The notes under the pieces: model-generated
The model's database searches: none
The model's input: only the letters and a program-made list of their open reading frames with translations
What the model was told of the DNA's origin: nothing
Shown: piece after piece, positions 1,810 through 51,115 of the stretch
Layout of the letters: each line of letters starts with the position of its first letter
Position numbering within the stretch: the first letter of the stretch is position 1
Translations under genes and position numbers: made by a program
NCBI GenBank assembly: GCA_042577045.1
Contig: JBHPEK010000002.1
Coordinates: 389 to 64,388, forward strand
Length of the DNA: 64,000 nucleotides
Source of the DNA: Patescibacteria group bacterium
GTDB lineage: Bacteria; Patescibacteriota; Minisyncoccia; JAHISW01; Tagabacteraceae
Reading direction: 5' to 3'

Positions 1810-3423
1810 TTGTTTGTTTTTAAAAATTTTCTAAAAGCACATTTTCTGTTTATTATTTTGCTGATTATTTTGGCAGTTTATTTGGGTTTGAAGACTGTTC
1901 CTGAAGACGGTTGGGATGAATGGGGATTTGGAACGGCGCAAGTCTTGATGTCTGCAAAATATTGGGCTGAAGATGGAATTGTTAATCACAAATTTCTAAC
2001 TATTCCTATGGGCTACAATAAAGTTGTCCAGTATCTTGATGAGCCAGAAATGAGGCACCACGCCAGAGGAGCGGTTACTGGCGGTTTGATTGGTCGTCGA
2101 CTTTATTATACTCATTATCCATCTGGCTATGTTTTTCCTCCAACTTTGCTAATGAAACTCGGTATTGACTATGTAGAACGTCATTGGTATAGAATTTTGT
2201 CTCTTATGTTTTCCCTTAGCGCCTTAATTTTTATGTATGCGTTTTTTTGCTATCTTTCCAATCGGTTAATTGCATTCTTGGCAACTCTTTATTATGCTGG
2301 ATCAACGATGTTTTTGGGCTTTGCTGATACGGTTTGTACTCCTCCAGTAGATGATTTTTTCAGATTTTTAATTTTGCTCTTAAGTGTTTTGGCATTTCGT
2401 AGTGTCTCGGATGTTAAAAAGTTTAGAATATACAACATCGCAATTTGGGCATCATATTTATTGTTGTCTATTTCTTCTTATGATTCCACTTTTTTTATTT
2501 TCGTTTGGCTTGTTGGTTTAGATATTATTATTTTCAAAAAGTTTTTGTGGAAAAGGTGGTTGATTTTTGCTTTGGCACCAATATTAGCATTTTGTTTGCA
2601 GGTTTTGCAAAATATTTGGTATTTTGGTGATTGGAGAACATTATGGCTTGATACAATGGGTGCCGGAGTAGCCAAAGCCCAATCTGGTAGCCTTTGGTTG
2701 CATATAAAGAGTATTTCGAGATCCTTTTATTTGTTGACTGGTTTTAGTGCGCTGTGGTCGACTCTGGGAATAGCAGGTCTATTTGTTGGATTTTGGAAGT
2801 TTAAAAAGAGCTTTCAATTGAAAAATTTTTATACAAACAATATTATTTGGATTTTAATAATTTTGTTTTTGGCTGGTTCAATTTTTCCATTTCTTTTTGC
2901 TGGAGGAGTTTTTGAATATCAGGGCAGACAAATGGCGCCATTTGTTGGTTTGTTATTTGGTTTAATAATCTACTTAGTTGGTAAAAATTTATTTTCTTTA
3001 AGAAGAAAAAAGATATTAATTGTTTTGTTTTTTATTGTTCTAGTTTTTTGGGCTGGTCAAATTATTAGAACAATTGATTATGTAAAAGATTGGCCAAACA
3101 ACACGATTGATAAAAATATTGTTGAATTTTCTAAATCGTTAAAAGAAAAGAAAGATGGAGTCGTTTTTAGAATCGATAACTTACCTTCTAAGCGTTATCC
3201 CAACATTGATCCTCGAGTTGAATATTATATAGAATTACCGGTTTTATCCTTTGAAAACCGGGAAGATTTGATCAACGATTATAACTGGCTAAAGAATCGT
3301 TCTGAATTTCCTTTTAAGGCAATTATTTTAGCCACCGACCAAGAAGAGAAAGAGAAAATAAAATTATTGTTTGAAGACAATAAAGAAGTTATAATTTTGA
3401 TTGGTCCTAGTTTAAATATTTAA
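1810..3423 (+). CDS. Polytopic membrane protein, putative GT-C glycosyltransferase of the ArnT/PMT type (GT39/83-like). Paralog of 4850..6523.
   Basis: About 12 predicted transmembrane segments. The first loop carries WDEWGFGTAQ...AEDG, which resembles the DE-x-x-Y...A..M..G motif of ArnT/PMT enzymes. There is a C-terminal soluble domain. Long near-identical blocks are shared with 4850..6523 (LIAFLATLYYAGSTMFLG, DDFFRFLILLLSVLA, KKFRIYNIAIW). A TTG start is inferred. Confidence 0.45.
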   Translation: MFVFKNFLKAHFLFIILLIILAVYLGLKTVPEDGWDEWGFGTAQVLMSAKYWAEDGIVNHKFLTIPMGYNKVVQYLDEPEMRHHARGAVTGGLIGRRLYYTHYPSGYVFPPTLLMKLGIDYVERHWYRILSLMFSLSALIFMYAFFCYLSNRLIAFLATLYYAGSTMFLGFADTVCTPPVDDFFRFLILLLSVLAFRSVSDVKKFRIYNIAIWASYLLLSISSYDSTFFIFVWLVGLDIIIFKKFLWKRWLIFALAPILAFCLQVLQNIWYFGDWRTLWLDTMGAGVAKAQSGSLWLHIKSISRSFYLLTGFSALWSTLGIAGLFVGFWKFKKSFQLKNFYTNNIIWILIILFLAGSIFPFLFAGGVFEYQGRQMAPFVGLLFGLIIYLVGKNLFSLRRKKILIVLFFIVLVFWAGQIIRTIDYVKDWPNNTIDKNIVEFSKSLKEKKDGVVFRIDNLPSKRYPNIDPRVEYYIELPVLSFENREDLINDYNWLKNRSEFPFKAIILATDQEEKEKIKLLFEDNKEVIILIGPSLNI

Positions 3424-3431
3424 GTAAACTT

Positions 3432-4853
3432 ATGAAAATTGCATTTGTTCAAAATTTAATGATGCCTTATTTTGGGATATCTTATATTTCTTCTGTCTTA
3501 AGAAAGGGGGGGCATTTGTCGGAAGTTTTTATAGAAGGGTTACATAAAGATATAGTAAAAGATATTTGTGATGCTCAGCCTGACATTGTTGGTTTTTATT
3601 GTATCACAGGCGAACATCGGTGGGTTGAGAGAACAGCAAGAGAAATAAAGAAGAAGCTGGATATTCCTGTTATAGTTGGAGGGCCGCACCCTACTTATTT
3701 TCCAGAAATGGTGGAGGAGGACGGTATTGATATGATTTGTCGAGGAGACGGGGAGATTGCTGTGTTAGAGTTGATGAATAGGATTGAGAGAAAGGAGAAT
3801 ACTAACAACATAGAAGGAATTTGGTCAAAAGAAGGCGTGGATATTCACAAAAATGGTGTTGGAGAAATGATTGAAGATTTGGAGACCCTTCCTTTGCCGG
3901 ATAGAGATCTTTATGACAAGTATGATTTTTTTAAAGAAGAAACGGAGATTCCAGTGTGTGTTTCTAGGGGGTGTCCGTTTAATTGTACTTTTTGCTACAA
4001 CGCATCCAAGAAGAAGTTATATTTGGGCAAGAAGGTGGTAAGGACAAGGAGTGTTGAGAATATTATGTCCGAGATAACATATTTGCGCAAAGAATATCCT
4101 CTTATGAAATCAATTATTTTCAACGATGATAATTTAGGTTTGTCTCCAGACTGGTTTAACGAGTTTTGTGAAAAATATGCAGGAATTAATGGTCCGCCAT
4201 ATTTTGCCAGTATTCGTGCAGACTTCATAAATGAAAAGACTATTAAAAAATTAAAAAAATCAAATTGTTTCTGTCTTTCTCTTGGGGTTGAAAGTGGAAG
4301 TGCAGAAATGAGAAGAAAGATATTACACAAGAACATACCAGACGAAGTCTATATCAATGCCGCAAAATTAATGAGAGAGAACGGTATAAAAGTAAGAACT
4401 TCGAATATGTTTTTCTTGCCAGGAGAAACTATTGACATGGCTTTTAAAACCGTTTGGTTAAATAAGAAAATGAAAACGGATTATCCGTGGGTTTATCCTC
4501 TCCAGCCTTATCCAGGAACAGAGATTTATGACTATTCGATGAAAAACAATTTCTTGAGAAAGGATTTTTCTTTTGACGACATAGACCCCCTGGGAATTTT
4601 AGAAAGTCCCTTGGAGTCAAAATTAAAAGATGGAAAAAAGATTAAAGTTTTACATAGACTTTTTTATTATGGTGTTAAGGTTCCAGGATTTGTTTATTTA
4701 TTAAAGTTATTTGTTTATATTCCAAACAATTTTGTTTTTGAATTTTTTCATCGTTTTGCAATTTTAATGACTTATGCTAATTATCATCAGGTTAGTTTTT
4801 ACAGGGCGCTAAAGGTGGCATTGCAGGCGAATAAAGTTGAAAAAAGAAAATGA
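3432..4853 (+). CDS. Cobalamin(B12)-binding radical SAM protein (class B).
   Basis: The N-terminal B12-binding Rossmann region contains IVGFYCITGEH...VIVGGPHPT. The radical SAM cluster motif is CPFNCTFC (CxxxCxxC). The stop overlaps the next start (ATGA). Confidence 0.75.
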   Translation: MKIAFVQNLMMPYFGISYISSVLRKGGHLSEVFIEGLHKDIVKDICDAQPDIVGFYCITGEHRWVERTAREIKKKLDIPVIVGGPHPTYFPEMVEEDGIDMICRGDGEIAVLELMNRIERKENTNNIEGIWSKEGVDIHKNGVGEMIEDLETLPLPDRDLYDKYDFFKEETEIPVCVSRGCPFNCTFCYNASKKKLYLGKKVVRTRSVENIMSEITYLRKEYPLMKSIIFNDDNLGLSPDWFNEFCEKYAGINGPPYFASIRADFINEKTIKKLKKSNCFCLSLGVESGSAEMRRKILHKNIPDEVYINAAKLMRENGIKVRTSNMFFLPGETIDMAFKTVWLNKKMKTDYPWVYPLQPYPGTEIYDYSMKNNFLRKDFSFDDIDPLGILESPLESKLKDGKKIKVLHRLFYYGVKVPGFVYLLKLFVYIPNNFVFEFFHRFAILMTYANYHQVSFYRALKVALQANKVEKRK

Positions 4854-6523
4854 AAAATATTTTTAGAAAACATTTTTTATTTATTTTACTATTATTTATT
4901 TTGACGGTTTATCTGGGACTGAAGGCAATACCTAGTAATAGCTGGGATGACTGGGCTTTTGGTTCAGCGCAGACAATGTTAACTATGAGGCATTGGGTTG
5001 AGGATGGAATGATTTATTCTAAGTTTTTATTTATACCGATTGGTTATAGTAAAATTGTTCAATACTTTGATGAACCAGAAATGCGTCGTCACGCCAAGGG
5101 AACAACAACGGGAGAGTTAATGGAGAACAGACTTTATTACACTCATTATCCTGCTGGGTATCTGATTCCACATGGAATTTTAGCTAAAATAGGTTTTGAG
5201 TCTAGGTATTGGTTTAGATTTTTAGCGCTACTTTTTTCTTTGTCGGCGCTTATTTTGATGTATTTCTTTTTTTGTTTTCTCTCAAATAAATTAATTGCCT
5301 TTCTGGCAACCCTCTATTATGCTGGGTCAACAATGTTTTTAGGATTGGCTGATTCTTTGGCTAATCAACCAATAGATGACTTTTTCAGATTTCTAATATT
5401 ACTTTTAAGTGTTTTGGCAGTACGGAATGCTTCCAATGTTAAAAAATTTAGAATTTATAATATCGCAATTTGGGTTTCGTATTTTTTGCTTGCTAGCTCT
5501 TCTTATGATTCCACTTTCTTTGTTTTCGTCTGGCTTGTGGGTCTAGACATTGTTACTGACTGGAATACTAACAAAGATGGTGCGAAGCCCCGTACCAAAA
5601 GATTAAAAGAAATCTTTTTGGTTCGGGGGAAAAAGTGGTTGCTGTGGGGAAGTGCTCCTGTCTTGGCATTTATTTTGCAAATGGCGCAAAATGTTTGGTA
5701 TTTAGGGTGGCGTGATATGTGGCTTGATGTTTACGGTTCTTTTAAATTTCGTACTACATCAGCGCCTGGTTCTGGTTTTTTTGAAAAACATATACGGTCA
5801 ATGTTCTCACCTCTTGTATATTTAGCTGACTTTAGAGCTCGTTTTATTATTCCTATCATTTCATTTTTATTTTTTATTTTTTGGAAATTAAAAAACAAGG
5901 TAAGTTACACTTGGCCCAAAATACAAGTATTAGTTTTGCTCGCTCTGGCTGGATTTGCTTATCCTTTTATTCTTTCTTCAACAGCATATTTCCCATATCA
6001 GGGTAGGCAAATGTTGCCTTTTGTTGGTTTACTGCTGGCTTCTTCTACTATTTTAATTTTTAAAATTTTTAAGGAAAAAAGGGAAATGTCTTTGTATTTA
6101 ATTGGCATGCTACTGCTTGTTGCTAGTCTTTGGTTTGTTCAAGCACAAAGAACATATTCTTACATTCTTGAATGGCCAAATAATACTGTTGATAAAGAGG
6201 TAATTAGTTTTACTAAAGAAATAAAAGACATTGAAGGAGAGAACAAGGTGATTTTTAAGTTAGATGGAACTATTCCTACCCGCCACCACCATGCTTCGCT
6301 GGTTCTTGAGTATTATATGAATATGCCAATTATGTCTTTTAAATATTCTTTTGACTTAGTTCGTGATTATAAGTGGTTAAAAGATCGATCTGAATATCCT
6401 TTTTATTCTGTAGTTTTAACTACTACCGAGGAAGAGTTTAATGAGGCAAATTCTTTGTTTGACGGAGAAGATCAGATCTCTATTATTTATAGACCAGATT
6501 TAAATTTTGATTTAGGAATATGA
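4850..6523 (+). CDS. Polytopic membrane protein, putative GT-C glycosyltransferase. Paralog of 1810..3423.
   Basis: Carries WDDWAFGSAQ...VEDG and the same conserved blocks as 1810..3423. Multiple transmembrane helices and a C-terminal soluble domain. Confidence 0.45.
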   Translation: MKNIFRKHFLFILLLFILTVYLGLKAIPSNSWDDWAFGSAQTMLTMRHWVEDGMIYSKFLFIPIGYSKIVQYFDEPEMRRHAKGTTTGELMENRLYYTHYPAGYLIPHGILAKIGFESRYWFRFLALLFSLSALILMYFFFCFLSNKLIAFLATLYYAGSTMFLGLADSLANQPIDDFFRFLILLLSVLAVRNASNVKKFRIYNIAIWVSYFLLASSSYDSTFFVFVWLVGLDIVTDWNTNKDGAKPRTKRLKEIFLVRGKKWLLWGSAPVLAFILQMAQNVWYLGWRDMWLDVYGSFKFRTTSAPGSGFFEKHIRSMFSPLVYLADFRARFIIPIISFLFFIFWKLKNKVSYTWPKIQVLVLLALAGFAYPFILSSTAYFPYQGRQMLPFVGLLLASSTILIFKIFKEKREMSLYLIGMLLLVASLWFVQAQRTYSYILEWPNNTVDKEVISFTKEIKDIEGENKVIFKLDGTIPTRHHHASLVLEYYMNMPIMSFKYSFDLVRDYKWLKDRSEYPFYSVVLTTTEEEFNEANSLFDGEDQISIIYRPDLNFDLGI

Positions 6524-6530: not shown

Positions 6531-7247
6531 ATGAACAAGAGAATTTTTAGATTTAAAAAACCAGTAGCTTTAATAGAACCCGCATATTTTTGGCTTCATG
6601 CTAAGCCAAAAGTTTTAAAATGGTTCTTAGCGTTTGCACCAATTTCTGCTTTCATTTTTGAAATTCGTTTTCTTAGAAAAATATTTTTCAAAATAGATTT
6701 TAATGAGAGAGTTGTAGAAAACACTTTTGTTTTAGCCAATATTCCTGAATTACCAGCTAAAATATTAGATTTTGGTGTTACCAGCTCTTGGTTGAGCATC
6801 AGATTGGCTTCTTTGGGGTACAAGATTACTGGTTTAGATATGCGGCCTTATGAGTTTTCTCACCCCAACATAAAACTAATTCGGGGTGATTTGTTTGAAA
6901 CATCTTTACCCAAAGAAGAGTATGATGCCATCTTAGTTGTTTCTACCCTAGAGCATGTTGATGCAGACGAGCGTGCTCTTCAAATTTTATCAGAATCATT
7001 AAAAATAGGCGGAAAATTATTTATAACTGTACCTTTTGGTCAGGAGGCAATTTTGCCTTCCCATCGAGTTTATTCTAAAAAAAGATTAGAGAAAATAGTT
7101 CCTCCAAATTTAAATATCAAAAAAATAGCTTATTATAAAAAAGACTCTTCAATGGTGTGGCTTGAGTCTAAAGAGGAAGATGTTTCTTTGGTAGATTCGT
7201 CCAGAGAATCAAATGCTGTAGTATGTTTAATTTTAGAAAAACAATAA
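6531..7247 (+). CDS. Class I SAM-dependent methyltransferase.
   Basis: ILDFGVTSSWLSIRLASLGYKITGLD (motif I), LVVSTLEHV and GGKLFITVP are typical of the Methyltransf_11/12 fold. Confidence 0.55.
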   Translation: MNKRIFRFKKPVALIEPAYFWLHAKPKVLKWFLAFAPISAFIFEIRFLRKIFFKIDFNERVVENTFVLANIPELPAKILDFGVTSSWLSIRLASLGYKITGLDMRPYEFSHPNIKLIRGDLFETSLPKEEYDAILVVSTLEHVDADERALQILSESLKIGGKLFITVPFGQEAILPSHRVYSKKRLEKIVPPNLNIKKIAYYKKDSSMVWLESKEEDVSLVDSSRESNAVVCLILEKQ

Positions 7248-8560
7248 AAAAATACTGGTTTCCCATTTTGGTACTGTTCATAATTATTTTGAGTGCTGTA
7301 ATTTGGTTACCAAAATATGGAGCATGGACGGGAGCAACTGATGTGGAGTATCAAGTGATAGCTCAGAATATGCTAGAGGGCAAGGGATATTCTTTGGATG
7401 AGGAAAAAACAATGAAACGGGAACCTGCTTACCCTACTTTCTTGTTTTTAAACTACAAAATTTTTGGAGTTAATTCTAATTTGATTAGGTTTGAACAATT
7501 AATTTTTTTGTTTTTAATTTGTTTTTTAACTTATAAACTTTCTAAAGAATTTTTTAATGAAGCAGTTGCTAAAATTGCTACACTAGCAATTGCAATTCAT
7601 CCTTTGTTTATTATTTATGTAACTGATCGAGTTTCAGAAATTTTAGCTACCTTTTTGATTTTATTGTTTTGCTTCGTTCTATTAAAAAGTGTCGGAAGAG
7701 AAAATTTATTATTTAGTTTTTTGTCTGGATCTATTTTGGGGCTTCTTGTTTTGACTAAAAGTATTTTTATCTTTATTCCTATTTTTGCAGTTATTTTTTA
7801 TTTGTTTAAGGGTGGTAATAAAAAATTAGTAAAAGCTACTTTGTTTTTTTTGGCTTTTGTTATTTTTGTTTCTCCTTGGTTTTTACGAAACTACACTTAT
7901 TTTGACACTTGGTCTATTGCTGAAAGAGGAGGCCTGATTACTTATATGCACACATTAAAAACTAAACTTTATGGGCAGGATTTGAAAGATTATCTTGTTT
8001 CTTCTTTTTTGAGTCAGTATTTTGTGCGCTTAGAAAATCCTTCCTTTAAAATAGCCGACATAAACAAGACGCCGGTAAATGAAGAAATAGACGAACTTTT
8101 GGGAGAGGGTTATTCTCGTCGAGAAATAGATATTTTGTTTGCAGAGAAAGCGAAAGAGAGCTGGAAGCAACATCCTATAAAAAATTTTCTTTTAGGTTTT
8201 ACGCAGTTAAGTAGAGCTAATTCACCGACTGTGCCGAAGGATTCTATAATGTATGTCTATGCCGTTCCAGATAGTTTGTTTATGAAGTTTGCTCGAGGAG
8301 CGGTACTAGTTTTTATTAGGTTGTTTTGGTTGATTGTATTATTGTTGATGGTTTACGGTGTTTACAAAACAATACGTTTAAAAAAATATTATCTTCTGCC
8401 GTTGATATTTTTGATTGTATATTTGAATGGCCTTCTTTCTCTTTTTGATACTGCACCACGTCATATTTTCCCAATTTATCCTCTCTATTTTATCTTTTTT
8501 GCCTTTGGCTTGTCTTTTTTGCTTTCCCCCGACCCCGGGGGTCGGGGGAAAAATCTTTAA
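7223..8560 (+). CDS. GT-C membrane glycosyltransferase (GT39/ArnT/PMT_2-like).
   Basis: TDVEYQVIAQNMLEGKGY matches the DE-x-Y...A..M..G signature of ArnT/PMT. There are more than 10 transmembrane helices. The C-terminus reads through a GC palindrome. Confidence 0.55.
   Translation: MFNFRKTIKKYWFPILVLFIIILSAVIWLPKYGAWTGATDVEYQVIAQNMLEGKGYSLDEEKTMKREPAYPTFLFLNYKIFGVNSNLIRFEQLIFLFLICFLTYKLSKEFFNEAVAKIATLAIAIHPLFIIYVTDRVSEILATFLILLFCFVLLKSVGRENLLFSFLSGSILGLLVLTKSIFIFIPIFAVIFYLFKGGNKKLVKATLFFLAFVIFVSPWFLRNYTYFDTWSIAERGGLITYMHTLKTKLYGQDLKDYLVSSFLSQYFVRLENPSFKIADINKTPVNEEIDELLGEGYSRREIDILFAEKAKESWKQHPIKNFLLGFTQLSRANSPTVPKDSIMYVYAVPDSLFMKFARGAVLVFIRLFWLIVLLLMVYGVYKTIRLKKYYLLPLIFLIVYLNGLLSLFDTAPRHIFPIYPLYFIFFAFGLSFLLSPDPGGRGKNL
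8521..8549 (+). terminator. Near-perfect GC palindrome (CCCCCGACCCCGGGGGTCGGGGG) lying across the 3' end of the preceding CDS. Possible intrinsic terminator or attenuator.
   Basis: An 11-bp G/C stem read directly, followed by AAAAATCTTT. It lies inside the last codons of 7223..8560. Confidence 0.3.
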
Positions 8561-8654
8561 GTTCTTGTGGGGGAGTGTGTGGGGGAGTTGCGTATTTTAG
8601 TTGTTTGTGATAGTTTTGAAAAAAACAAAGAACGTTGACATAAGGAGGATATCT

Positions 8655-9479
8655 ATGAAAGAGAGTAAGATTGCTTTTTTGGAGGAAAAGGCGCTTTGGG
8701 TGCGTCAGCAGGTTTTAGAAATGTGTTTAGCTGCGGGAGCTGGGCATATTGCGCCAGCATTTTCGTGCGCAGACATTTTAACGCTACTTTACTACGGTGA
8801 TATAGTACGAGTGGATCCTAGAAATAGAACTTGGGAAGATCGAGATCGTTTTATTTTGAGCAAAGGTCAGGCTTGTGCCGGTCTTTACCCCATATTGGCT
8901 GATCTTGGATTTTTTCCAGTTGAGGATCTTGTGAATTACTGCCAGAACGGTAGTTATTTGGGCGGACATACGGAATCTAAAGTTCCTGGAGTAGAAACGC
9001 TTACTGGTTCACTTGGGCATGGATTATCTATTGGTCTTGGTATGGCTTTGGCCGCCAAAATGGACAAAAGGGATTATTACACATTTGTTCTTTTGGGGGA
9101 CGGATCGCTTCAAGAAGGTTCAAATTGGGAGGCAGTGATGGCGGCGCAGAAATACGAATTGGATAACTTGATTGCCATTGTTGATAGAAACAATCTGCAA
9201 GCTCTTGATTTTACGACTAATTCTATTGACCCTGGTGACCTTGCCAAGCCATTTGAGGCTTTTGGGTGGGATGTTTATCAAGCAGATGGACATTCTTTTG
9301 AAGAGATGGATATCGTTTTTGATATGGCGACGCAGAATAGAGACGGAAGACCAACAGTTATTATTGCGCATACCACCAAAGGAAAAGGCGTATCTTTTAT
9401 GGAAAACGATCCCAAGTGGCATTTTCGGATCCCTAAAGGTGACGAAATTACCCAAGCCAGAAAGGAGTTGAAAATATGA
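8655..9479 (+). CDS. Transketolase, N-terminal (TPP-binding) subunit of a split transketolase.
   Basis: LGHGLSIGLGMALA, LLGDGSLQEGSNWEA and the HIAP..SCADIL motifs. RBS AAGGAGG lies 7 nt upstream of the ATG at 8655. Confidence 0.8.
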   Translation: MKESKIAFLEEKALWVRQQVLEMCLAAGAGHIAPAFSCADILTLLYYGDIVRVDPRNRTWEDRDRFILSKGQACAGLYPILADLGFFPVEDLVNYCQNGSYLGGHTESKVPGVETLTGSLGHGLSIGLGMALAAKMDKRDYYTFVLLGDGSLQEGSNWEAVMAAQKYELDNLIAIVDRNNLQALDFTTNSIDPGDLAKPFEAFGWDVYQADGHSFEEMDIVFDMATQNRDGRPTVIIAHTTKGKGVSFMENDPKWHFRIPKGDEITQARKELKI

Positions 9480-17794: not shown

Positions 17795-17795
17795 T

Positions 17796-43747: not shown

Positions 43748-44369
43748 ATTTGTCTACAAGTGGGGAAATTATTTTTTTAACAAACAAGGGAAGTTTGTAG
43801 TATATTTTTCTGGCGACTCTTTTAAAATGTATATTTAGAGACGTTTTTTGTTGTGGCCAAGAGAATTTATTAAAAGAATAAATGTTTTCAATTTTATTTT
43901 TTCTGGGTATAGAAATTGAGGTTTGTTTGGGATATCCGAAAGCTACATAGGCAACAGGGGAATATGACTCTTTGATATTAAAGATTTTTTTAAGAGTTTT
44001 TTTGCTAGGCAGGTGGCACACCCAGCAAGCTCCCAATCCTAGATCATGTATAGTTAGAAGCATATTTTGAATAGCAGCGGAACTACTTTGAATCCAATCA
44101 AGATACTCTAGATTATCTGAATCTGATTTATTGTATAGAACTAAAATTCCATAAGGAGCACTTTTTATAACTGGGGCGCTTCCGTTTTCAAAAATCTTAT
44201 TTTTTATTTCTTGGTCATCTACTATGATAAACTTCCAGCTTTGTGTGTTGCAATGGCTGGGTGCCCAATTACCAGCCTCTAGAATTTTCTCTAGAGTTTC
44301 TTGGTTTATTTTTTGATCAGAAAAAACTCGAACGCTTCTTCTATTTTTAATTACTTGTTCTATTTCCAT
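43725..44369 (-). CDS. Nitroreductase family protein.
   Basis: IKNRRSVRVF and WAPSHCNTQSWKFIIV. The start at MEIEQ overlaps the upstream gene. Confidence 0.8.
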   Translation of the reverse strand: MEIEQVIKNRRSVRVFSDQKINQETLEKILEAGNWAPSHCNTQSWKFIIVDDQEIKNKIFENGSAPVIKSAPYGILVLYNKSDSDNLEYLDWIQSSSAAIQNMLLTIHDLGLGACWVCHLPSKKTLKKIFNIKESYSPVAYVAFGYPKQTSISIPRKNKIENIYSFNKFSWPQQKTSLNIHFKRVARKIYYKLPLFVKKIISPLVDKFVKKFKN

Positions 44370-45433
44370 AAAGAGTGTTTTAAAATTGATAAATATTCTT
44401 TGGGATTGAAAATTATACCGGTACGAATAGCACACTCCCAGGTGCAATTACACTGTTTGTTTTTTATTTTTTCATATTCTTTTTTAGCAAAATCAGATTT
44501 AACTATTTTATTTATGTCATAATCAAAATCTCGTAAATTTCCTAGGGATGTTGGTAAAATCTCACAAATTTTTATTTTGCCATCGTCTTCCAATACTATC
44601 ATTTTTTTAATAGCATAACAGTTGAAATTTCGTTTTCTTGTTGTAAGGTTTTCAAAAACTTTTTCGCGAGCAGTAATAGTTGCTCCCCAAATAAAACCAG
44701 ATAAAGGATGATTTTTAAATTTGTTTCTGTTTAATTTTGAAAGATATTCTGTTGCTTTTTTGTATTTTTCAATATAAAGATTTTCTTTGTTATCTTTAGA
44801 ACGGGCATCTCCTCTAATAAAGGTCATACTCATTGAATCTACATCTAAGTTTTTCTTTATAAAATCTAAAACTTCCATTACCTTATCCTGATTTGTTTTC
44901 ATAAAACAAGTGTTGGTAATTAGAGAAAAGTTTTTGTATTTATTCTTTAGTTTTTTGACTTGTTTTACTGTTTCGATTACTTTATCAAAACCTCCAGGAA
45001 CACCTCGTATCTTATCGTGCATTTCACCGATACCGTCAATAGAAAAAGAAAATCTAAAATGTATTTTAGGATATTTTTGTAATATTTTTTCCGCTGTATT
45101 TACAATTTTTTCGGTCGAGAAGCCATTAGATGGAATACCAACCATATCTACACCTGTATATTTTTTAAATAATTCAATAATGTCTATTAAATCGTCTCTT
45201 AAGTATGGTTCACCTCCAGACAAATTTAGAAAAAGCATACTGCCCCAATTTTTGGCAATTTTTTCTATTTCTTCTAAAGAGAGCTCTTTTCTGTTTGGTG
45301 CCTCGTCAACCAATTTCCAATTAAAACAATGAGAACAACGAGCATTGCACTTAGATGTTATATAAAAAATTGTGTAGAAAGGTGTTTGGCTAAAATAAAA
45401 TTTTAACCATCTGATATATTTTGGTAATTTCAT
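44360..45433 (-). CDS. Radical SAM protein with a C-terminal SPASM-like Cys cluster.
   Basis: SKCNARCSHC (CxxxCxxC). C-terminal CNCTWECAIRTG. Confidence 0.7.
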   Translation of the reverse strand: MKLPKYIRWLKFYFSQTPFYTIFYITSKCNARCSHCFNWKLVDEAPNRKELSLEEIEKIAKNWGSMLFLNLSGGEPYLRDDLIDIIELFKKYTGVDMVGIPSNGFSTEKIVNTAEKILQKYPKIHFRFSFSIDGIGEMHDKIRGVPGGFDKVIETVKQVKKLKNKYKNFSLITNTCFMKTNQDKVMEVLDFIKKNLDVDSMSMTFIRGDARSKDNKENLYIEKYKKATEYLSKLNRNKFKNHPLSGFIWGATITAREKVFENLTTRKRNFNCYAIKKMIVLEDDGKIKICEILPTSLGNLRDFDYDINKIVKSDFAKKEYEKIKNKQCNCTWECAIRTGIIFNPKEYLSILKHSLWK

Positions 45434-46413
45434 AAAGATTTTTTTTTCTTGGTTAAGTGGGCAAATATTAGTCCTGTGGTTCCAGCAATAGAAACAACAA
45501 GAATATAAAAATAGTGTAACAAGGTTGTTCTAAAACTGAAAATGGCTCCATGTTTTTTATAAAATTTGTTATATAAAGATCGGTTTAGGAAGAAAAAAAC
45601 AAAGTAAAATAGCAAAGCTAAATATAATAGTGGTCGAAAAAATAAACCCAGAACAACAAATAATAAAACTACTCCTGAAAGAAGGTAAAGTATTTTAAAC
45701 ATCTTGCTGTTGTAAGATGTTTCTGTTTTGTTTTTGATTTGATACAAAACCATAGCCCTAAGAAAAGCTCTTTGGCAATATTTTTTCATACCTTCAAAAA
45801 AGAAGCTATCAAGATAAGAATTTTTCATTAAGATTTTCTTATCTAGGTCTATCTTGTACCCTTTATTAAATAATTTTAAGCCAAAATAAAAATCTTCAGC
45901 GTTGGCTGTTTTGAAATTTTCATCAAATCCACCCTCTTTTAAAAATAGATCTTTGTAAATTGCCGAACCGTTACTTCCGAAACTTTTGGTAATCAAATTG
46001 GTGAATAAATAGTTTCCTTCAACAGCTTTAAATTTGTTAAAGAAATTATTTTTTATGGACTCGTCACTCCAAGAAATTGTAAGACCTTGAAGCTTAGGAT
46101 CTTTTTGAAATCGTTCGTATATTTTTTCAAAAGTGTCTGGATAAACTTGGGCATCGGAGTCAAGAAAGAAAACAATATTACCTGTGGCTTTTTTAACCCC
46201 AAAGTTTCTAGCTACAGCTGGACCTTTGTTTTTTTCAAAAGTAAATAATTTAGTATTTGGGTATTTGGCAACAATTTCTTCTACACTTACTTTAGTGGAA
46301 CCATCATCAATCACGATTATTTCTGGTAGAACATTTTTTGAATTAAAAATAGAATCAAGGCATTGGTTTAAGAGAGGATCATTATACGTAGCAATTATAA
46401 CAGAGATTTTCAT
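45430..46413 (-). CDS. GT2 family glycosyltransferase.
   Basis: ISVIIATYND, IIVIDDGST and FLDSD. Confidence 0.75.
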   Translation of the reverse strand: MKISVIIATYNDPLLNQCLDSIFNSKNVLPEIIVIDDGSTKVSVEEIVAKYPNTKLFTFEKNKGPAVARNFGVKKATGNIVFFLDSDAQVYPDTFEKIYERFQKDPKLQGLTISWSDESIKNNFFNKFKAVEGNYLFTNLITKSFGSNGSAIYKDLFLKEGGFDENFKTANAEDFYFGLKLFNKGYKIDLDKKILMKNSYLDSFFFEGMKKYCQRAFLRAMVLYQIKNKTETSYNSKMFKILYLLSGVVLLFVVLGLFFRPLLYLALLFYFVFFFLNRSLYNKFYKKHGAIFSFRTTLLHYFYILVVSIAGTTGLIFAHLTKKKKSL

Positions 46414-47300
46414 TATTTATTATAGATAACGATTTCAGCAAGAAGGCCAAAGAAAAGAGTTTGAAGCGCCGTAGCAAAAAGAATTAAAATTGTTGTGTCA
46501 TAGAAGGTGGAAATAATTCCAAGAAAAAACAGAACAGTTAAAACTAGAGGTACAGCAAGTAAAAGCAAACTTAAGGGCAAGAAAACTTTAATTGGCCTGA
46601 AGAAAAGAGAAAGTTTTGTTACTAGCTTCAAGAAATTTATAAAGTCTACAGCTCGGATAGAAGATTTTCCTTTTCTTTTGTAATATTCAATGGGAATAAA
46701 TTTAGTTGGATAGCTGTGACTTAGGCATACCATTGTCAGAGTAGAGGTAAAAGAAAATTTTTCTGGAAAAAGATCCCAATATTTTATAACTATATCTTTT
46801 TTAAACATTCGCAGTCCACAGTTTAAATCTGGTATCTTTGAGCTTACCAGGTAACTAGTAAACCTATTTAGAAAGTTTTTTGCCCATCTTCTTTCAAAAG
46901 GAATTCCTTTTCCGTTTATTTGTCGGTGGCCGGTAATTAGGTCGTAGTTGTTAGATTGTTTTATGAGGTCAGGAATAGAATGAACTGGATAAGTGCCATC
47001 CCCGTCCATAATAATTATCCAATTGTATTTGCTATGCCGAATACCAGTCTTCAAGCTGGCGCCGTATCCTTTATTGATAGGGTGATGTAGTACAATTGTT
47101 GGATCAGGGGAATTGTGAATCTGTTCTAGGATTTCTTCACATTTGTCGGTAGAACAATCATTAACAAGTATTATTTCGTAATTTCTAGAAAATTGTGGTT
47201 CAAGAGTATCAATAATACCAGAAACTGTGTTTTTTATCGTTTCGGCTTCATTATATACAGGAATAATTATAGAAAAATTTTTAGCAATTTCACTTTGCAT
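46413..47300 (-). CDS. GT2 polyprenol-phosphate glycosyltransferase (DPM-synthase/ArnC/GtrB-like) with a C-terminal transmembrane region.
   Basis: FSIIIPVYNEAETI and ILVNDCSTD. C-terminal hydrophobic helices. Confidence 0.7.
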   Translation of the reverse strand: MQSEIAKNFSIIIPVYNEAETIKNTVSGIIDTLEPQFSRNYEIILVNDCSTDKCEEILEQIHNSPDPTIVLHHPINKGYGASLKTGIRHSKYNWIIIMDGDGTYPVHSIPDLIKQSNNYDLITGHRQINGKGIPFERRWAKNFLNRFTSYLVSSKIPDLNCGLRMFKKDIVIKYWDLFPEKFSFTSTLTMVCLSHSYPTKFIPIEYYKRKGKSSIRAVDFINFLKLVTKLSLFFRPIKVFLPLSLLLLAVPLVLTVLFFLGIISTFYDTTILILFATALQTLFFGLLAEIVIYNK

Positions 47301-47358
47301 AATGCTGTTATTTTAGGCTTATTTGCCTTTTTTTTCAAGTTTGTTAGAATATCTACTA

Positions 47359-47586
47359 ATGGTAAAAATTATTCAAAAACTAGATGGTTGTATTGGTTGT
47401 GGAACCTGTGTCGTTCTCTGTCCAAAATATTGGGAAATGAACGAAGACGGGAATAAAGCTGTCCTTAAGGGGTCCACTCAAAATACTAGTGGCGATTGGG
47501 AATTAGAGGTAAATGACTCAGAATGTAATAAGGATGCAGAGGAAGCTTGCCCGGTTAGTGTTATCTCCCAGAGTGATCAAGCATAA
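47359..47586 (+). CDS. Small 4Fe-4S ferredoxin.
   Basis: CIGCGTCVVLCP ... C...EACP. The start could be 47323. Confidence 0.6.
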   Translation: MVKIIQKLDGCIGCGTCVVLCPKYWEMNEDGNKAVLKGSTQNTSGDWELEVNDSECNKDAEEACPVSVISQSDQA

Positions 47587-48886
47587 CCATTATTGTTTTC
47601 AAAAACGTAGATAAGTCTAAAACAATAGATCTATTTTTTATGTAGTATAAGTCATACTGCAATTTTTTTATGGCGTCTTCTACAGATGAGCCGTATCGGT
47701 AATTTATTTGCGCCCAACCGGAAGCTCCAGGTTTTACCAAAAGGCGCATTGAATAGTGGGGGATTTTTTCTGTAAGTTGTTGAACAAACTCTGGTCTTTC
47801 TGGGCGTGGACCAATGAAAGATAAATCTCCCATAAGAATGTTTAAGAGTTGTGGAAGTTCATCTAGTCTAGTTCTTCTTAACATTTTTCCTATTTTTGTA
47901 ATTCTTTTGTCTTTTTCTGTGGCCCAAGTTGCTCCATTTTTTTCGGCATTCTGAATCATTGATCTAAATTTTATAATTTCAAAAATCTTTCCGTTTTTAC
48001 CAACTCGTTGGTGTTTATAAAAAACAGGACCCTTGCTGTTGCTTTTTATGGCTATGGCTATTATGGGCGTGAATAATAAAGTAGGAATACCAAGAATGAT
48101 TGCTCCCAGAATATCAAAAAACCTTTTAAGTGTTTCAAACATTTTTTTATCTAGAGTGGAAAGATTTTCCAAAAACCAATTTTCATTGATCATTGATAGC
48201 GGAACTTTTCCTCGAATTATTTCATAAAAGTTTTGAAAATTTACAACGTCAACACCAAGAGGAAGAACTTCGTAAAATTTTTTCATTCCATCTTCAGAGC
48301 GAGTGATACTTTCGGAGGCAACTATCAACTGGATGTTGTGCTCCTTAATTATTTTTTGAAGATTGTTGTTCACAGAAGGAAGGACGGTTGTTGGTTCGTA
48401 GCCAATTTGAGGATTGTTTTTTAAATGATTTGCTAGTTCTTCTACCTCTTTTGATGATCCAAAAAATAAAACTTTTATTTTTGACACCTTCCTGCTAAAA
48501 GACCAAAACAATCTTCTCCAAAGGATGAGGAAGAATGCTACCAAAACAATATCTAAGAATAAGATAGTTTTTGGAGCAATGCCTGTTTGGGGAATAAAAT
48601 AAAAGATAATGGTTGATAGTATTGTGATTATTAGAAGAGCGTTAGCTGTTCTTTTTAAAATTATTTTAAAAGAACCAAATCCTTTTATATCGTAAAGATC
48701 ACTGATATAGAATACAAAAAGCCAGAGAATGTGAATAAATAAAAATGGCACTTGGTGTAAGTCCCAAGTTTCTTTTACTAGCGAAAATCCTGTTCTGATA
48801 CTCAAAGCCAAATAAAGGCTTAAGTAAAACATTATTAAGTCTCCAGCTAGCAGTAAAACTGTTTTGATGCGGTTAGATAAAATCAT
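47561..48886 (-). CDS. Polyprenyl-phosphate glycosyl-1-phosphate transferase (WbaP/EpsE-like initiating sugar transferase).
   Basis: N-terminal transmembrane helices. C-terminal bacterial sugar-transferase domain (KPGASGWAQINYRYG, LDLSTFLKTI). Confidence 0.8.
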   Translation of the reverse strand: MILSNRIKTVLLLAGDLIMFYLSLYLALSIRTGFSLVKETWDLHQVPFLFIHILWLFVFYISDLYDIKGFGSFKIILKRTANALLIITILSTIIFYFIPQTGIAPKTILFLDIVLVAFFLILWRRLFWSFSRKVSKIKVLFFGSSKEVEELANHLKNNPQIGYEPTTVLPSVNNNLQKIIKEHNIQLIVASESITRSEDGMKKFYEVLPLGVDVVNFQNFYEIIRGKVPLSMINENWFLENLSTLDKKMFETLKRFFDILGAIILGIPTLLFTPIIAIAIKSNSKGPVFYKHQRVGKNGKIFEIIKFRSMIQNAEKNGATWATEKDKRITKIGKMLRRTRLDELPQLLNILMGDLSFIGPRPERPEFVQQLTEKIPHYSMRLLVKPGASGWAQINYRYGSSVEDAIKKLQYDLYYIKNRSIVLDLSTFLKTIMVMLDHSGR

Positions 48887-48934
48887 AATATATTGCTAAA
48901 ACCTGCAATTATATGCTAGTTTAATAATTATAAC

Positions 48935-51115
48935 ATGTCTAGTAGATCAATAAGTTATATAGTTTATGCAATTAAAGCGGGCCTTTTTATTTTACCCCTG
49001 CTTTGTCTGATTGTCGTCGAGTCTTTATTTTTTCCTTTTATTACTGGAAAAAATTTCTTTTTTAGAATAATTGTTGAGATTCTATTACTTTTGTGGGTGT
49101 TTGTGATGGTTTTTGATTCCAAATATAGGCCACGAATAAGTCCAATTCTTATTTCTCTTTCTGCCGTCTTGTTGTTTTTGAGTTTGGCTACAATTTTTGG
49201 AGAGAGTCCTTATCGTAGTTTCTGGTCTAATTATGAAAGAATGGAAGGTCTAGTAAGCCATGTTCATCTTTTTTTGTATTTTCTAATCTTAACTAGTATT
49301 TTTCAAAGCCAAAAAGAATGGAAGCAGTTTTTTGGTGTTGTTTTGGGTGCCAATGTTCTTCTTGTTGGCTATGGTTTTTTACAGCTTGCTGGTAAAGCAG
49401 CTATCCATCAGAGTGGTACCCGGCTTGATGCTAGCTTTGGGAATTCTGGATACCTCGCAATTTATCTAATTTTTGGTATTTTCGTTACAGCCCTGTTTTT
49501 GTATTGGTTCAAAAATTTTTGGCTTCGGCTTGGTTTGGCCACCCTGCTTATTTTAGAGGCCTTAATTGTTTTCTTTACAGCTACTAGAGGTGCCATTCTG
49601 GGTCTTTTTGGTGGCTTGATACTTTTCTCTGTCTTGATGTCCATTTTTTCAAAAAATAAACCAATGCGCGTTACTGCTTTAGCACTTTTAACATTCTTGG
49701 TTATTATTTTGTCTTTGTTTTTTGTGTTCAGGAATGCTCAATTTATGAGCAACAATTATGTGCTTGCCCGATTATCAACAATGACAGTAGAGGAAACTAC
49801 TATACAATCTAGGCTTACTATTTGGGGAATGTCTTGGGAGGGCTTTAAAGAACACCCTATTCTTGGTTGGGGGCCCGAGAATTACAATTTAGTTTTCAAT
49901 AAATATTATAAACCCGAATTGTTTAGGCAAGAGCCTTGGTTTGATCGGTCTCACAATATAGTTTTTGACTGGTTGATAAGTTCAGGTATCTTGGGATTTC
50001 TTGCTTATATAAGTATTTTCACGTCTACTTTTTATATGATTTGGCGCAAGAAGTTTGATTTGTTTCAAACCTCTCTAATTGTTTCACTTTTTGCAGCCTA
50101 TCTTTTCCATAATCTTTTTGTTTTTGACAATCTAACTTCTTATTTTATGTTCTTTTCTGTTTTGGGATATATTCATACCTCATCGTTTGAAAAAGAAAAA
50201 GAGTCTGTGAACAAGAAAGATATTCCATTTTCTAGTTATTTTGTTGTTACCTTTGTGTTTTGTTTGGTTGTTTTTTCCTTATATTTTGTAAACGCCAAAC
50301 CAATTATGGCTGCCAACAGTCTTTTAAGAACTCTTATTCTACAAAGACAACCTGTATCTGCTGGTGTTGTTGTAGATAAATACGACGAGGTTTTTTCTTT
50401 TCGTACTTTTGGTAGCGGAGAGGCTAGAGAGCAACTGAGTGGCTTTGCCAATAACGTTGTGGTCGCGCAAGACGTTTCTGTGGAAGATAAAAATCTGATT
50501 CTTGGAAAAGCTATTGAGCAGATGGAGTTGCAAGTAGAAGCATTTCCGAAACAAACAAGATATAGAGTTTTTTTAGGAGCTTTGTATTCTAGAGGAATGT
50601 TAATTGATGAATCTTTAAAAATGCTTCTTTCTGCTTTAGAACTTTCACCAAACAAACAACATATTTCGTTTGCTGTTGCCGATGCTTATTTGTCTTACGG
50701 GCAAAAAGAAAAAGCTTTAGAAATCTTACAGAAAACCTATGAATTAAGTCCTGTGTATAGCGAGGCCGCCAAAAACTATGTAATGGTATCTATTATTGTA
50801 AATTTAGATAATGCTCAAGTTCTTTTAAACCAAATGATGAAGATTTTTGGTGAAGACTTTAGATATGACAAAAAATTTATTTCCGCTTATGCCCAAGTGG
50901 GTGAATATGGAAAAGTAAAAGAAATATGGGAGTATCAGATTAAATTAAATCCTGAAAATTTGCAGTATTATCTGAATTTAGCTGCTACGCAAGTGGAGTT
51001 GGGTGAGCGAGAGGGGGCGATAAAGCAAATAGAATATATAATTAGTGTTCAGCCAAACTTTAAAGAACAAGGAGGGCAAATTATAAGAGACATCCGTGCT
51101 GGGAAGACTTTTTAA
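48935..51115 (+). CDS. O-antigen ligase/Wzy-like membrane protein with a C-terminal TPR-repeat domain.
   Basis: More than 10 transmembrane helices with a WFDRSHN-type motif. The C-terminal 250 aa has TPR-like repeats (ALEILQKTYELSP...). Confidence 0.55.
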   Translation: MSSRSISYIVYAIKAGLFILPLLCLIVVESLFFPFITGKNFFFRIIVEILLLLWVFVMVFDSKYRPRISPILISLSAVLLFLSLATIFGESPYRSFWSNYERMEGLVSHVHLFLYFLILTSIFQSQKEWKQFFGVVLGANVLLVGYGFLQLAGKAAIHQSGTRLDASFGNSGYLAIYLIFGIFVTALFLYWFKNFWLRLGLATLLILEALIVFFTATRGAILGLFGGLILFSVLMSIFSKNKPMRVTALALLTFLVIILSLFFVFRNAQFMSNNYVLARLSTMTVEETTIQSRLTIWGMSWEGFKEHPILGWGPENYNLVFNKYYKPELFRQEPWFDRSHNIVFDWLISSGILGFLAYISIFTSTFYMIWRKKFDLFQTSLIVSLFAAYLFHNLFVFDNLTSYFMFFSVLGYIHTSSFEKEKESVNKKDIPFSSYFVVTFVFCLVVFSLYFVNAKPIMAANSLLRTLILQRQPVSAGVVVDKYDEVFSFRTFGSGEAREQLSGFANNVVVAQDVSVEDKNLILGKAIEQMELQVEAFPKQTRYRVFLGALYSRGMLIDESLKMLLSALELSPNKQHISFAVADAYLSYGQKEKALEILQKTYELSPVYSEAAKNYVMVSIIVNLDNAQVLLNQMMKIFGEDFRYDKKFISAYAQVGEYGKVKEIWEYQIKLNPENLQYYLNLAATQVELGEREGAIKQIEYIISVQPNFKEQGGQIIRDIRAGKTF

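Follow-up and report, generated by a model that had tools for sequence, protein, structure and literature searches.

Sugars can be altered after attachment to a lipid: ArnD, of the Arn pathway, modifies its sugar in the lipid-linked state, and ArnD and DprE1/E2 are non-radical precedents for modification of lipid-linked sugars. Patescibacteria are abundant, mostly uncultured epibionts with genomes of ~1 Mb, and to our knowledge their surface chemistry is essentially unknown. Radical S-adenosylmethionine (SAM) chemistry on lipid-linked sugars has been described for HpnI/HpnK/HpnJ and for the calditol synthase Cds (PMC13459092), and HpnJ is listed among the cobalamin-dependent radical SAM enzymes (PMC9204698). 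Here, we describe a locus at positions 1810-51115 of a 64,000-nt stretch of Patescibacteria DNA (the whole stretch is the window, and all coordinates are positions in it), where the list of open reading frames (ORFs) and Pfam assign ~49 kb of a tiny genome to a surface glycan, and where eight radical SAM genes, five of them encoding a B12-binding domain, stand among ten glycosyltransferase genes (Table 1). Our main finding concerns the fifth of these B12-type enzymes (#5, encoded at 42296-43747), the family of which is paired across several phyla with a glycosyltransferase of family 2 (GT2) resembling GtrB and ArnC. It seems probable to us that the locus specifies a surface glycan in which a chain initiated by a polyprenyl-phosphate phosphoglycosyltransferase (PGT) is combined with side branches delivered on polyprenyl phosphate, the radical SAM enzymes remodeling the sugars before export. 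More tentatively, and with rather less than even confidence, we propose that #5 and its GtrB/ArnC-type GT2 form a widespread, undescribed route that rewrites, by C-methylation, ring contraction to a cyclitol or deoxygenation, a sugar bound to polyprenyl phosphate, the product of which is installed by a glycosyltransferase of the GT-C class; hypervariable Patescibacteria loci with four or five non-orthologous B12-type enzymes would then make surface sugars new to envelope glycans.

The three-component glycosylation systems (GtrA/GtrB/GtrC, ArnC/ArnD/ArnEF/ArnT and CsbB/GtcA/YfhO) resemble this locus in that its GT2 with two C-terminal transmembrane helices matches ArnC, GtrB and DPMS, and that a GT-C enzyme is encoded in the same locus. 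They differ in that no small flippase was found in the window and that the modifier here is a B12-domain radical SAM enzyme, for which our literature search found no precedent in such systems. In HpnI/HpnK/HpnJ and Cds, likewise, the hexosamine or hexose that a GT2 has attached to a lipid is remodeled by a radical SAM enzyme (PMC13459092, PMC9204698). Here, however, the HpnJ profile reaches at best 248 against 578 bits, hopanoid and glycerol dialkyl glycerol tetraether (GDGT) genes are absent, the carrier would be polyprenyl phosphate, and the product would be passed to a GT-C enzyme. AprD4, responsible for C3' deoxygenation in apramycin, works together with the reductase AprD3, and its substrate is a soluble aminoglycoside. 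It has a carbohydrate substrate and is the best structural and the best PDB sequence match of #5 (1e-30), but is only 21% identical to it; AprD4 is a carbohydrate 1,2-diol dehydratase with a Rossmann-like domain devoid of cobalamin, and ArsL, like AprD4, has the domain yet binds no cobalamin (PMC12931638). GenK, GenD1, Fom3 and MoeK5 have the same two-domain architecture as the B12-type enzymes, to which they are likened by architecture alone, and differ in belonging to secondary-metabolite pathways of actinomycetes. MoeK5 acts on a sugar within a lipid-linked saccharide, and AsnB-like amidotransferases belong to the same pathway. MoeK5 itself is a sugar C-methylase of moenomycin biosynthesis (PMC9204698). 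Finally, O-antigen, capsule and S-layer loci of the Wzx/Wzy kind have in common with this locus a PGT, GT4 and GT2 enzymes, Wzx, a Wzy_C protein, and variable gene content at a conserved site near MurB/SecA, whereas the eight radical SAM enzymes, the four GT-C proteins and the thiamine diphosphate (TPP) enzymes set it apart, as does the lack in the window of a Wzz/polysaccharide co-polymerase (PCP) protein and of standard nucleotide-sugar genes (RmlA-D, Ugd, epimerases). The parts (Wzx/Wzy loci, three-component GT2/GT-C systems, B12-domain radical SAM enzymes) are known, and what appears to be new is their combination, with a conserved GT2/B12-type pair in envelope glycan loci.

A genome scan found 377 loci encoding members of the #5 family, which share 58-81% identity among the best 120 database matches; one database protein of 475 aa (P0001) is 100% identical to #5. 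Across Patescibacteria, anammox Planctomycetota, Chloroflexota, Omnitrophota and Desulfobacterota, the family is 55-80% identical, and the record titles of the best 80 of the 377 loci comprise ~23 Patescibacteria, 21 anammox or other Planctomycetota and 9 Chloroflexota, as well as Omnitrophota, Desulfobacterota and others. Neighborhoods were annotated in 80-84 related loci from tblastn searches that used the proteins of the window and from ORF clusters; these loci (L-numbers) derive mostly from metagenome-assembled genomes, and a few of their labels (Methanosarcinales, Gammaproteobacteria) may be binning errors. The sole near-universal neighbor of #5 is a GT2 homologous to the product of 46413-47300, present in 71-75 of the 80-84 loci. 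It lies upstream of #5 and is co-directional with it in 65 of 75 loci, with a gap of less than 100 nt in 44, and the partner enzymes (median 290 aa) have at least two C-terminal transmembrane helices in 66 of 67 cases. The window's own copy also ends in two such helices; its top seven PDB matches are ArnC, GtrB and DPMS, near full length, and its best NCBIfam profiles are PgfS, ArnC, AglJ and PpgS, none of them reaching its curated cut-off. By architecture and similarity, below those cut-offs, it is predicted to be a polyprenyl-phosphate monosaccharide synthase. In a full-text literature search, we found no account of a conserved GT2/B12-type pair in primary envelope-glycan loci that is multiplied in Patescibacteria, and nothing relevant on B12-domain radical SAM enzymes in the candidate phyla radiation (CPR), in O-antigen loci or in GT-C contexts.

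Gene fusions and recurrent neighbors add detail to this pairing. A GT2-radical SAM fusion of 685 aa from a close relative (L086, 7040-9097) is 62% and 64% identical to the window proteins of 45430-46413 and 44360-45433, respectively, and a methyltransferase is fused to a B12-type enzyme in the 725-aa protein P0009. Orthologues of the class I methyltransferase of 41545-42306, 75-83% identical, directly follow the #5 orthologue in two loci (L086, L006). Other recurrent neighbors are class I methyltransferases (26 + 8 loci), PMT_2-type GT-C proteins (14 + 11 + 8), an LPG_synthase_TM protein (19), PGTs (12) and nitroreductases (10); the LPG_synthase_TM protein occupies the neighboring position in its 19 loci. 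In the nearest relatives, the cassette consists of a divergently transcribed Wzy_C-TPR gene, a PGT, in some cases a ferredoxin, the GT2, a nitroreductase, the B12-type enzyme and a methyltransferase. The nitroreductase orthologue stands between GT2 and #5 in L005, L006, L007 and L009, L005 and L084 have ferredoxin homologues next to the orthologue of #5, and L005 also encodes a 54% identical Wzy_C-TPR orthologue divergent from the PGT.

Around this core, gene content is highly variable. Two to five B12-type genes occur within 21 kb in 24 of 84 loci, most of which, including all with four or five, are labeled Patescibacteria/CPR; a Portnoybacteria locus (L001) has four next to MurB, and L086 has five. 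Orthologues shared by the window and L086 are limited to #5 (80% identical) and its methyltransferase (75%), the remaining B12-type enzymes of L086 being 25-38% identical to any window copy. Another locus (L087) repeats the left arm of the window, with the order GT-C, B12-type, B12-type, GT-C, PMT_2, followed by a TPP enzyme and a SPASM-type radical SAM enzyme. The arrangement is that of a conserved core joined by accessory genes that vary, all at a site of the chromosome that is conserved near MurB/SecA, as in O-antigen loci. The claim that the locus goes far beyond typical O-antigen or capsule loci, made in an earlier reading of the window based on its letters and ORF translations (the sequence-only reading), is right in relation to model organisms; it has to be narrowed with regard to related Patescibacteria, in which the architecture recurs, and to several anaerobic phyla that share the core gene pair. 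In Brocadia, the neighbors of #5 are the GT2, PMT_2-PA14 proteins and housekeeping genes (shikimate and leucine pathways). As a side observation, the GT2/B12-type pair is followed in Brocadia loci (L016, L033 and others) by GT-C proteins of ~670-870 aa that include a fused PA14 domain, which binds carbohydrates. Kuenenia is reported to have an unusually methylated S-layer O-glycan, and the report on it mentions no link to radical SAM enzymes (PMC5088730).

Throughout, NCBIfam curated cut-offs served as the threshold for family membership and Pfam gathering scores as that for domains, the Pfam scan covering 53 non-overlapping ORFs of the window. In 1810-51115, Radical_SAM (PF04055) was found in eight ORFs, all eight with the CX3CX2C motif. 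The sequence-only reading had called eight radical SAM enzymes, five of them B12-binding, and had named beforehand the loss of the B12 domain in a hidden Markov model search as grounds for abandoning the call; PF02310 exceeded its cut-off of 32.1 bits in exactly five, N-terminal to the radical SAM domain and only marginally in #3. PF04055 is above its cut-off in all five, their cluster motif is CP[FH]xC[STA][FY]C, and at 25-32% pairwise identity they are divergent paralogues. The five are led by the HpnJ and BchE profiles (HpnJ first for four), and the best sub-threshold case is #5 against HpnJ, at 247.8 against 577.6 bits, all others being lower. True membership in HpnJ or BchE was rejected on these cut-offs, and those of other B12-type radical SAM equivalogs (HpnR, PhpK, BzaD, the MCR Gln C-methyltransferase and TIGR04072) were likewise not reached by the radical SAM enzymes of the window. 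No family named for GenK, GenD1, Fom3 or MoeK5 was among the 25 best NCBIfam families listed per protein. An AlphaFold2 (AF2) model of #5 (pLDDT 90.3) has an N-terminal alpha/beta domain and matches AprD4 best, with a TM score of 0.74-0.78 over the full length, followed by TsrM, MgmA/QCMT, OxsB, CysS and TokK, also full-length. HpnJ, BchE and OxsB are classed as non-methylases, although a published similarity network groups HpnJ with Fom3 and MoeK5, which are methylases (PMC9204698). The B12-domain call is thus sound, but neither the use of cobalamin nor methylation follows from the domain; C-methylation is only one option beside ring contraction and deoxygenation, since the leading profiles are non-methylases, the best fold is that of AprD4 and no curated cut-off is reached.

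The ten glycosyltransferases comprise four GT2, two GT4 and four GT-C enzymes. This number had been given by the sequence-only reading, and it holds only after structure prediction, which added two Pfam-less proteins by their GT-C fold, one of them modeled. These two, encoded at 1810-3423 and 4850-6523, flank B12-type enzyme #1. The AF2 model of the former, built from an alignment of 40 sequences, has a pLDDT of 92.5, and its top 31 Foldseek matches in the PDB are all GT-C proteins (STT3/AglB/PglB, ALG9/12, ArnT, AftA/B, Pmt4, PimE); the latter is taken to be a GT-C protein as well because it is 49% identical to it. Identity with the STT3/PglB oligosaccharyltransferases was rejected, as the family lacks WWDYG and has only a small C-terminal domain. 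This domain is of the alpha/beta type, loop 1 contains an invariant DEPE, and the family, with ~120 database matches, is found mostly in Patescibacteria, a Parcubacteria locus (L085, 5881-16242) having six tandem copies. It appears to be a new branch of this class of glycosyltransferases. Homologues of a further GT-C candidate, that of 40097-41563, occur in 14-15 related loci.

From the observed gene content, folds, conserved pairing and fusions, we infer a substrate, a chemistry, an order of steps and an acceptor as follows. The main chain would be started on polyprenyl diphosphate by the PGT, extended by GT4 and GT2 enzymes, flipped by Wzx and handled on the outside by the Wzy_C-TPR protein. 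For side branches, a GtrB/ArnC-type GT2 would load one sugar onto polyprenyl phosphate. None of the eight radical SAM enzymes has a transmembrane helix, and for this reason, as well as for their need of SAM and low-potential electrons, they are expected to act in the cytoplasm, where they would remodel sugars before export. The substrate of #5 is most likely a common sugar linked to polyprenyl phosphate by its GT2 neighbor, since the partner conserved with #5 is a lipid-carrier GT2 and never consistently an enzyme of nucleotide sugars. The reaction may be C-methylation, ring contraction or deoxygenation, and a second modification would come from the methyltransferase encoded next to it. The ferredoxin would supply electrons, and the nitroreductase-like flavoprotein may do likewise or reduce a radical-derived intermediate. 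The remodeled sugar would then be flipped and transferred to an external acceptor by a GT-C enzyme, of which four are present. The TPP enzymes, the aldo-keto reductase and the kinase/nucleotidyltransferase fusions probably make and activate unusual, branched or seven-carbon sugars for the main chain. In Patescibacteria, this module would have been expanded into variable multi-enzyme loci.

Several points weigh against this picture. The functions given to the genes of the locus are predictions, and the radical SAM enzymes might take nucleotide sugars as substrates instead, ahead of the GT2. None of the eight reached a curated NCBIfam cut-off, cobalamin binding is putative, and the closest fold in the model comparison for #5 is the cobalamin-independent AprD4. 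The window yielded no small flippase of the GtrA/ArnEF/GtcA type, 40097-41563 is a probable GT-C gene called from a sub-threshold Pfam match, and the large polytopic membrane protein that lies within 7 kb in 42 of the 44 loci with full flanks is a count without a background control. The SIS/GmhA and GmhB genes of the heptose pathway were not found in the window, and four ORFs (10398-11324, 21803-22375, 30233-31093 and 31077-31757) have no Pfam or PDB match.

Other readings of the same genes have also been weighed. The sequence-only reading had seen the B12-type enzymes as GenK/Fom3-like cobalamin C-methyltransferases of soluble nucleotide-activated sugars, the product being a polysaccharide of heavily C-methylated, sulfated and amidated higher-carbon sugars. 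This agrees with the occurrence of PF02310 together with PF04055 in five proteins, with the cobalamin enzymes TsrM, MgmA, OxsB, CysS and TokK just behind AprD4 in the fold search, with the co-clustering of HpnJ with Fom3 and MoeK5 (PMC9204698), with AsnB, sulfotransferase, TPP and HldE-like enzymes in the locus, and with the non-B12 enzyme of 11427-12530, the best matches of which are the nucleotide-sugar enzymes BlsE and DesII. We nevertheless consider it rather unlikely: the leading profiles are non-methylases and all sub-threshold, the best fold is a non-cobalamin dehydratase, #5 is partnered by a lipid-carrier GT2 rather than a nucleotide-sugar enzyme, a separate class I methyltransferase accompanies #5 or is fused to it, and Pfam scans found no cobalamin uptake or salvage gene in the window. 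Heavy C-methylation is not implied by these data, none of the five reaching a curated cut-off. That the B12-type enzymes modify lipids, either the polyprenyl carrier or scavenged membrane lipids, in the manner of HpnP/HpnR, GDGT-modifying or ladderane-associated enzymes, is improbable in our judgment. HpnJ, HpnR and TIGR04072 (lipid biosynthesis B12/radical SAM protein) are among the better NCBIfam matches, LPG_synthase_TM proteins are neighbors in 19 loci, many #5 orthologues come from anammox bacteria, and the known range of lipid-modifying radical SAM enzymes is widening (PMC13459092); yet all these scores are far under their cut-offs, the conserved neighbors are glycosyltransferases and not lipid synthases, and both the GT2 fusion in L086 and the glycosyltransferase and housekeeping neighborhoods of Brocadia argue against a lipid target.

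Nitroreductase-fold proteins occur in some clusters for peptides that are made by the ribosome and modified after translation (RiPPs), two of the radical SAM enzymes have SPASM matches in Pfam, and ApyD, rSAM_ocin_1 and PapB are among the sub-threshold profiles, all of which would suit RiPP maturases with glycosyltransferases as unrelated neighbors. An intergenic small-ORF scan found no plausible precursor ORF beside any radical SAM gene, the SPASM motif with seven cysteines is missing, Pfam scans revealed no YcaO, protease or peptide-exporter domain, and both the presence of the GT2 partner in no fewer than 71 of 80 loci and the GT2 fusion point elsewhere, so that we regard peptide maturation as very improbable; the precursor peptide that would have spoken against the glycan reading was not found. 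A different question is that of the acceptor, and a protein-linked O-glycan on a pilin or S-layer protein would be compatible with our preferred explanation. The Wzy_C domain is common to O-oligosaccharyltransferases of the PglL/PilO/WsaB type, a role that the Wzy_C-TPR protein would then have, the GT-C enzymes serving as protein glycosyltransferases. Protein binding is suggested by the TPR repeats, oligosaccharyltransferases and PMTs are among the matches of the GT-C model, and neither a Wzz/PCP chain-length regulator nor an export protein was found in the 53 ORFs scanned. The GT-C paralogues without WWDYG, a Wzy_C domain that does not separate polymerase, ligase and oligosaccharyltransferase, and the lack of an identified candidate acceptor protein make this end product doubtful. 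The Wzy_C-TPR protein itself could be any of these three enzymes.

If the locus is a surface glycan locus of the kind we propose, its ~49 kb and eight oxygen-sensitive, cofactor-hungry radical enzymes imply a glycan of great importance to the cell, as it might have in attaching to a host or evading phages. The GT2/B12-type pair is a small testable unit of two to four genes, suited to heterologous expression, from which new chemistry of carbohydrates on lipid carriers could be learned, and, should cobalamin really be used, it would expose a vitamin dependency of these symbionts.

Table 1. Features of the glycan locus in order of position, with the matches behind each assignment
Feature	Position	Strand	Evidence
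GT-C fold protein, 537 aa, ~10 transmembrane helices, no Pfam match	1810-3423	+	AF2 model and Foldseek
B12-domain radical SAM enzyme #1	3432-4853	+	PF02310 66.7 bits, PF04055 77.7 bits; CPFNCTFC at residue 181; under all NCBIfam cut-offs
GT-C paralogue, 557 aa, at least 7 transmembrane helices, no Pfam match	4850-6523	+	49% identical to 1810-3423 over 559 columns
Class I SAM methyltransferase	6531-7247	+	Methyltransf_11/23/25
PMT_2-type GT-C	7223-8560	+	PF13231 42.6 bits; 9 transmembrane helices
Split transketolase-like TPP enzyme	8601-10414 (N subunit 8601-9479, C subunit 9476-10414)	+	Transketolase_N 153 bits; Transket_pyr, Transketolase_C
Soluble protein, 308 aa	10398-11324	+	No significant Pfam or PDB match
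Radical SAM enzyme #6, partial SPASM/twitch	11427-12530	+	PF04055 and PF13186; 4 C-terminal Cys
Aldo-keto reductase	12543-13442	+	PF00248 190.6 bits
B12-domain radical SAM enzyme #2	13486-15051	-	PF02310 52.0 bits, PF04055 60.0 bits; CPFNCSYC
Type II restriction-modification (R-M) island	15371-19304		Restriction endonuclease (REase) 15371-16747 (+); m6A methyltransferase (MTase) 16733-17794 (-); LexA-S24-m6A MTase fusion 17796-19304 (-)
GT2, 230 aa, no transmembrane helices	19991-20683	+	PF00535 93.1 bits
Radical SAM enzyme #7, partial SPASM/twitch	20739-21806	+	PF04055 and PF13186; 30% identical to 11427-12530
190-aa protein	21803-22375	+	No Pfam or PDB match; 4-nt overlap with stop of preceding radical SAM gene
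Reverse-order HldE-like nucleotidyltransferase-PfkB kinase	22475-24001	+	CTP_transf_like and PfkB; sub-threshold for the rfaE domain models
Fused E1 alpha-beta TPP-dependent enzyme	24012-25937	+	E1_dh 211.9 bits, Transket_pyr, Transketolase_C; pyruvate dehydrogenase E1 alpha/beta profiles below cut-off
Second reverse-order HldE-like enzyme	26059-27582	+	40% identical to 22475-24001 copy
B12-domain radical SAM enzyme #3	27656-29356	+	PF02310 32.9 against 32.1 bits (marginal), PF04055 47.7 bits; 30% identical to #2 over 538 columns
GT2	29420-30187	+	PF00535 36.5 bits
Two soluble proteins	30233-31093, 31077-31757	+	No Pfam or PDB matches
AsnB-type glutamine amidotransferase	31815-33665	+	Asn_synthase 296.5 bits; TIGR01536 483 against cut-off 267
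GT4	33668-34723	+	Glycos_transf_1 145.7 bits
Wzx-type flippase	34716-35966	-	Polysacc_synt 58.6 bits; 10 transmembrane helices
Class I SAM methyltransferase	35988-36593	+	Methyltransf_11 59.9 bits
GT4	36569-37825	+	Glycos_transf_1 126 bits, Glyco_transf_4 99 bits
B12-domain radical SAM enzyme #4	37827-39290	+	PF02310 69.1 bits, PF04055 86.1 bits; BchE profile 201.6 against cut-off 481
Probable sulfotransferase (borderline)	39287-40093	+	Sulfotransfer_3 28.0 against cut-off 27; GVSRSGTS loop
Probable PMT_2-type GT-C	40097-41563	+	PF13231 19.8 bits, below cut-off 26.1; 8 predicted transmembrane helices
Class I methyltransferase, partner of #5	41545-42306	-	Methyltransf_11 60.4 bits
B12-domain radical SAM enzyme #5	42296-43747 (ORF; real start probably 43723)	-	PF02310 94.9 bits, PF04055 104.9 bits
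Nitroreductase-family flavoprotein	43725-44447 (true start probably near 44370)	-	PF00881 113.3 bits
Radical SAM enzyme #8, Cys-rich C-terminal domain	44360-45433	-	PF04055 66.9 bits, Fer4_12; C272, C290, C328, C330, C334; no PF13186
GT2, 2 C-terminal transmembrane helices, partner of radical SAM enzyme #8	45430-46413	-	PF00535 101.2 bits
GtrB/ArnC/DPMS-type polyprenyl-phosphate GT2 (predicted), conserved partner of #5	46413-47300	-	PDB matches ArnC, GtrB, DPMS
Small single-cluster [4Fe-4S] ferredoxin, ~75 aa	47359-47586	+	Fer4_15 46.3 against cut-off 22.4 bits; Fer4_13 44.7 bits
Initiating polyprenyl-phosphate PGT	47561-48886	-	Bac_transf 220.7 bits; TIGR03025 362.3 against cut-off 295.6
Wzy_C-family membrane protein with C-terminal TPR repeats	48935-51115	+	Wzy_C 80.6 bits and TPR; 13 transmembrane helices

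The genes are laid out in four co-directional blocks, in which neighbors overlap or are tightly packed according to the ORF coordinates, and the sharing of operons is therefore plausible. The call of a glycan locus with radical SAM and glycosyltransferase genes in the same operons has held up, and the host is a reduced-genome Patescibacteria bacterium, three window proteins being 100% identical to NCBI proteins of a Patescibacteria group bacterium; a reduced-genome symbiont had been raised as a possibility by the sequence-only reading. AsnB, the nitroreductase, the three methyltransferases, Wzx, the PGT and the Wzy-like protein that this reading had named were all matched in the Pfam or NCBIfam scans. 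Eight radical SAM genes in ~40 are far above chance for a genome of ~1,000 genes, the background being an estimate. According to Pfam, the flanks consist of housekeeping genes (MurB, SecA, aldolase, L25), and the window contains no tRNA or Rfam family.

The redox and sugar-making genes extend the earlier inventory, which lacked the ferredoxin, the TPP enzymes, the aldo-keto reductase and the HldE-like pair. The ferredoxin gene is located on the opposite strand in the 260-nt gap between PGT and GT2, its 3' end overlapping the PGT gene by 26 nt, and the protein is likely the electron donor of the radical SAM enzymes. The best NCBIfam profile of the nitroreductase is BluB, the B12 lower-ligand synthase; this identity was rejected at 69.7 against 150 bits, and BluB as nearest profile is suggestive in view of the B12 theme. 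The two HldE-like copies flank the fused E1 alpha-beta TPP enzyme. They are not true HldE, as the domain order is reversed (CTP_transf_like N-terminal, PfkB C-terminal) and PRK11316, with a cut-off of 521 bits, reaches only 118 and 144. The reverse-order family has 677 matches, in Patescibacteria (L088 carries a copy at 8001-10262), Omnitrophota and also Azospirillum halopraeferens, in the glycan locus of which the gene adjoins a SIS_2 isomerase and epimerases. The product of 21803-22375 was considered as the missing GmhA/SIS isomerase and shows no similarity to it. Higher-carbon sugars are plausible from the transketolase, the E1 TPP enzyme and the HldE-like enzymes, but a GmhA-type isomerase was not found in the window. 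The sulfotransferase is borderline: its Sulfotransfer_3 score is just above the cut-off, its GVSRSGTS loop resembles what we take to be the loop of sulfotransferases that binds 3'-phosphoadenosine 5'-phosphosulfate, and it has no PDB or NCBIfam match.

The three radical SAM enzymes without B12 domain look like twitch or partial-SPASM enzymes, as judged by their domains and cysteines. The description of all three as SPASM-type applies to #6 and #7, where PF13186 is present, and not to #8; each has four or five C-terminal cysteines, and none has the full motif CX2CX5CX3C. The best PDB matches of #6 are the sugar or nucleotide enzymes BlsE, DesII, MoaA, viperin and BtrN.

Further genes adjoin the locus at both ends. 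At 398-1808, a VTC-domain protein is followed by a DUF4956 membrane protein, possibly a polyphosphate-related pair, with a gap of 1 nt to the first GT-C gene. At 51324-55122, 3' of the Wzy_C-TPR gene, three proteins with an N-terminal hydrophobic segment are encoded, one unknown and 467 aa long, one with PG_binding_1 and one with DUF5667/DUF333; they may be envelope proteins or glycan acceptors.

The glycan locus is interrupted by the type II R-M island, which the earlier account had passed over and which is an insertion outside the glycan pathway. PADLOC identified REase_II (173 bits) and two MTase_II proteins (327 and 303 bits), and Pfam found LexA_DNA_bind, Peptidase_S24 and MethyltransfD12. 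In the 686 nt that separate the island from the GT2 gene after it lies a 95-aa Cys-rich ORF (19457-19744, + strand) with the stretches CSCGSWLEHW, CCPEKSCP and CKDCN, ~1 kb upstream of the radical SAM gene at 20739, for which neither Pfam nor PADLOC gave a match. The two m6A MTases of the island match the two halves of ~640-aa double MTases, in a type IIS-like manner. The second has an unusual N-terminal module of a LexA helix-turn-helix and an S24 autopeptidase, through which DNA damage could be linked to methylation or to the control of the R-M system.

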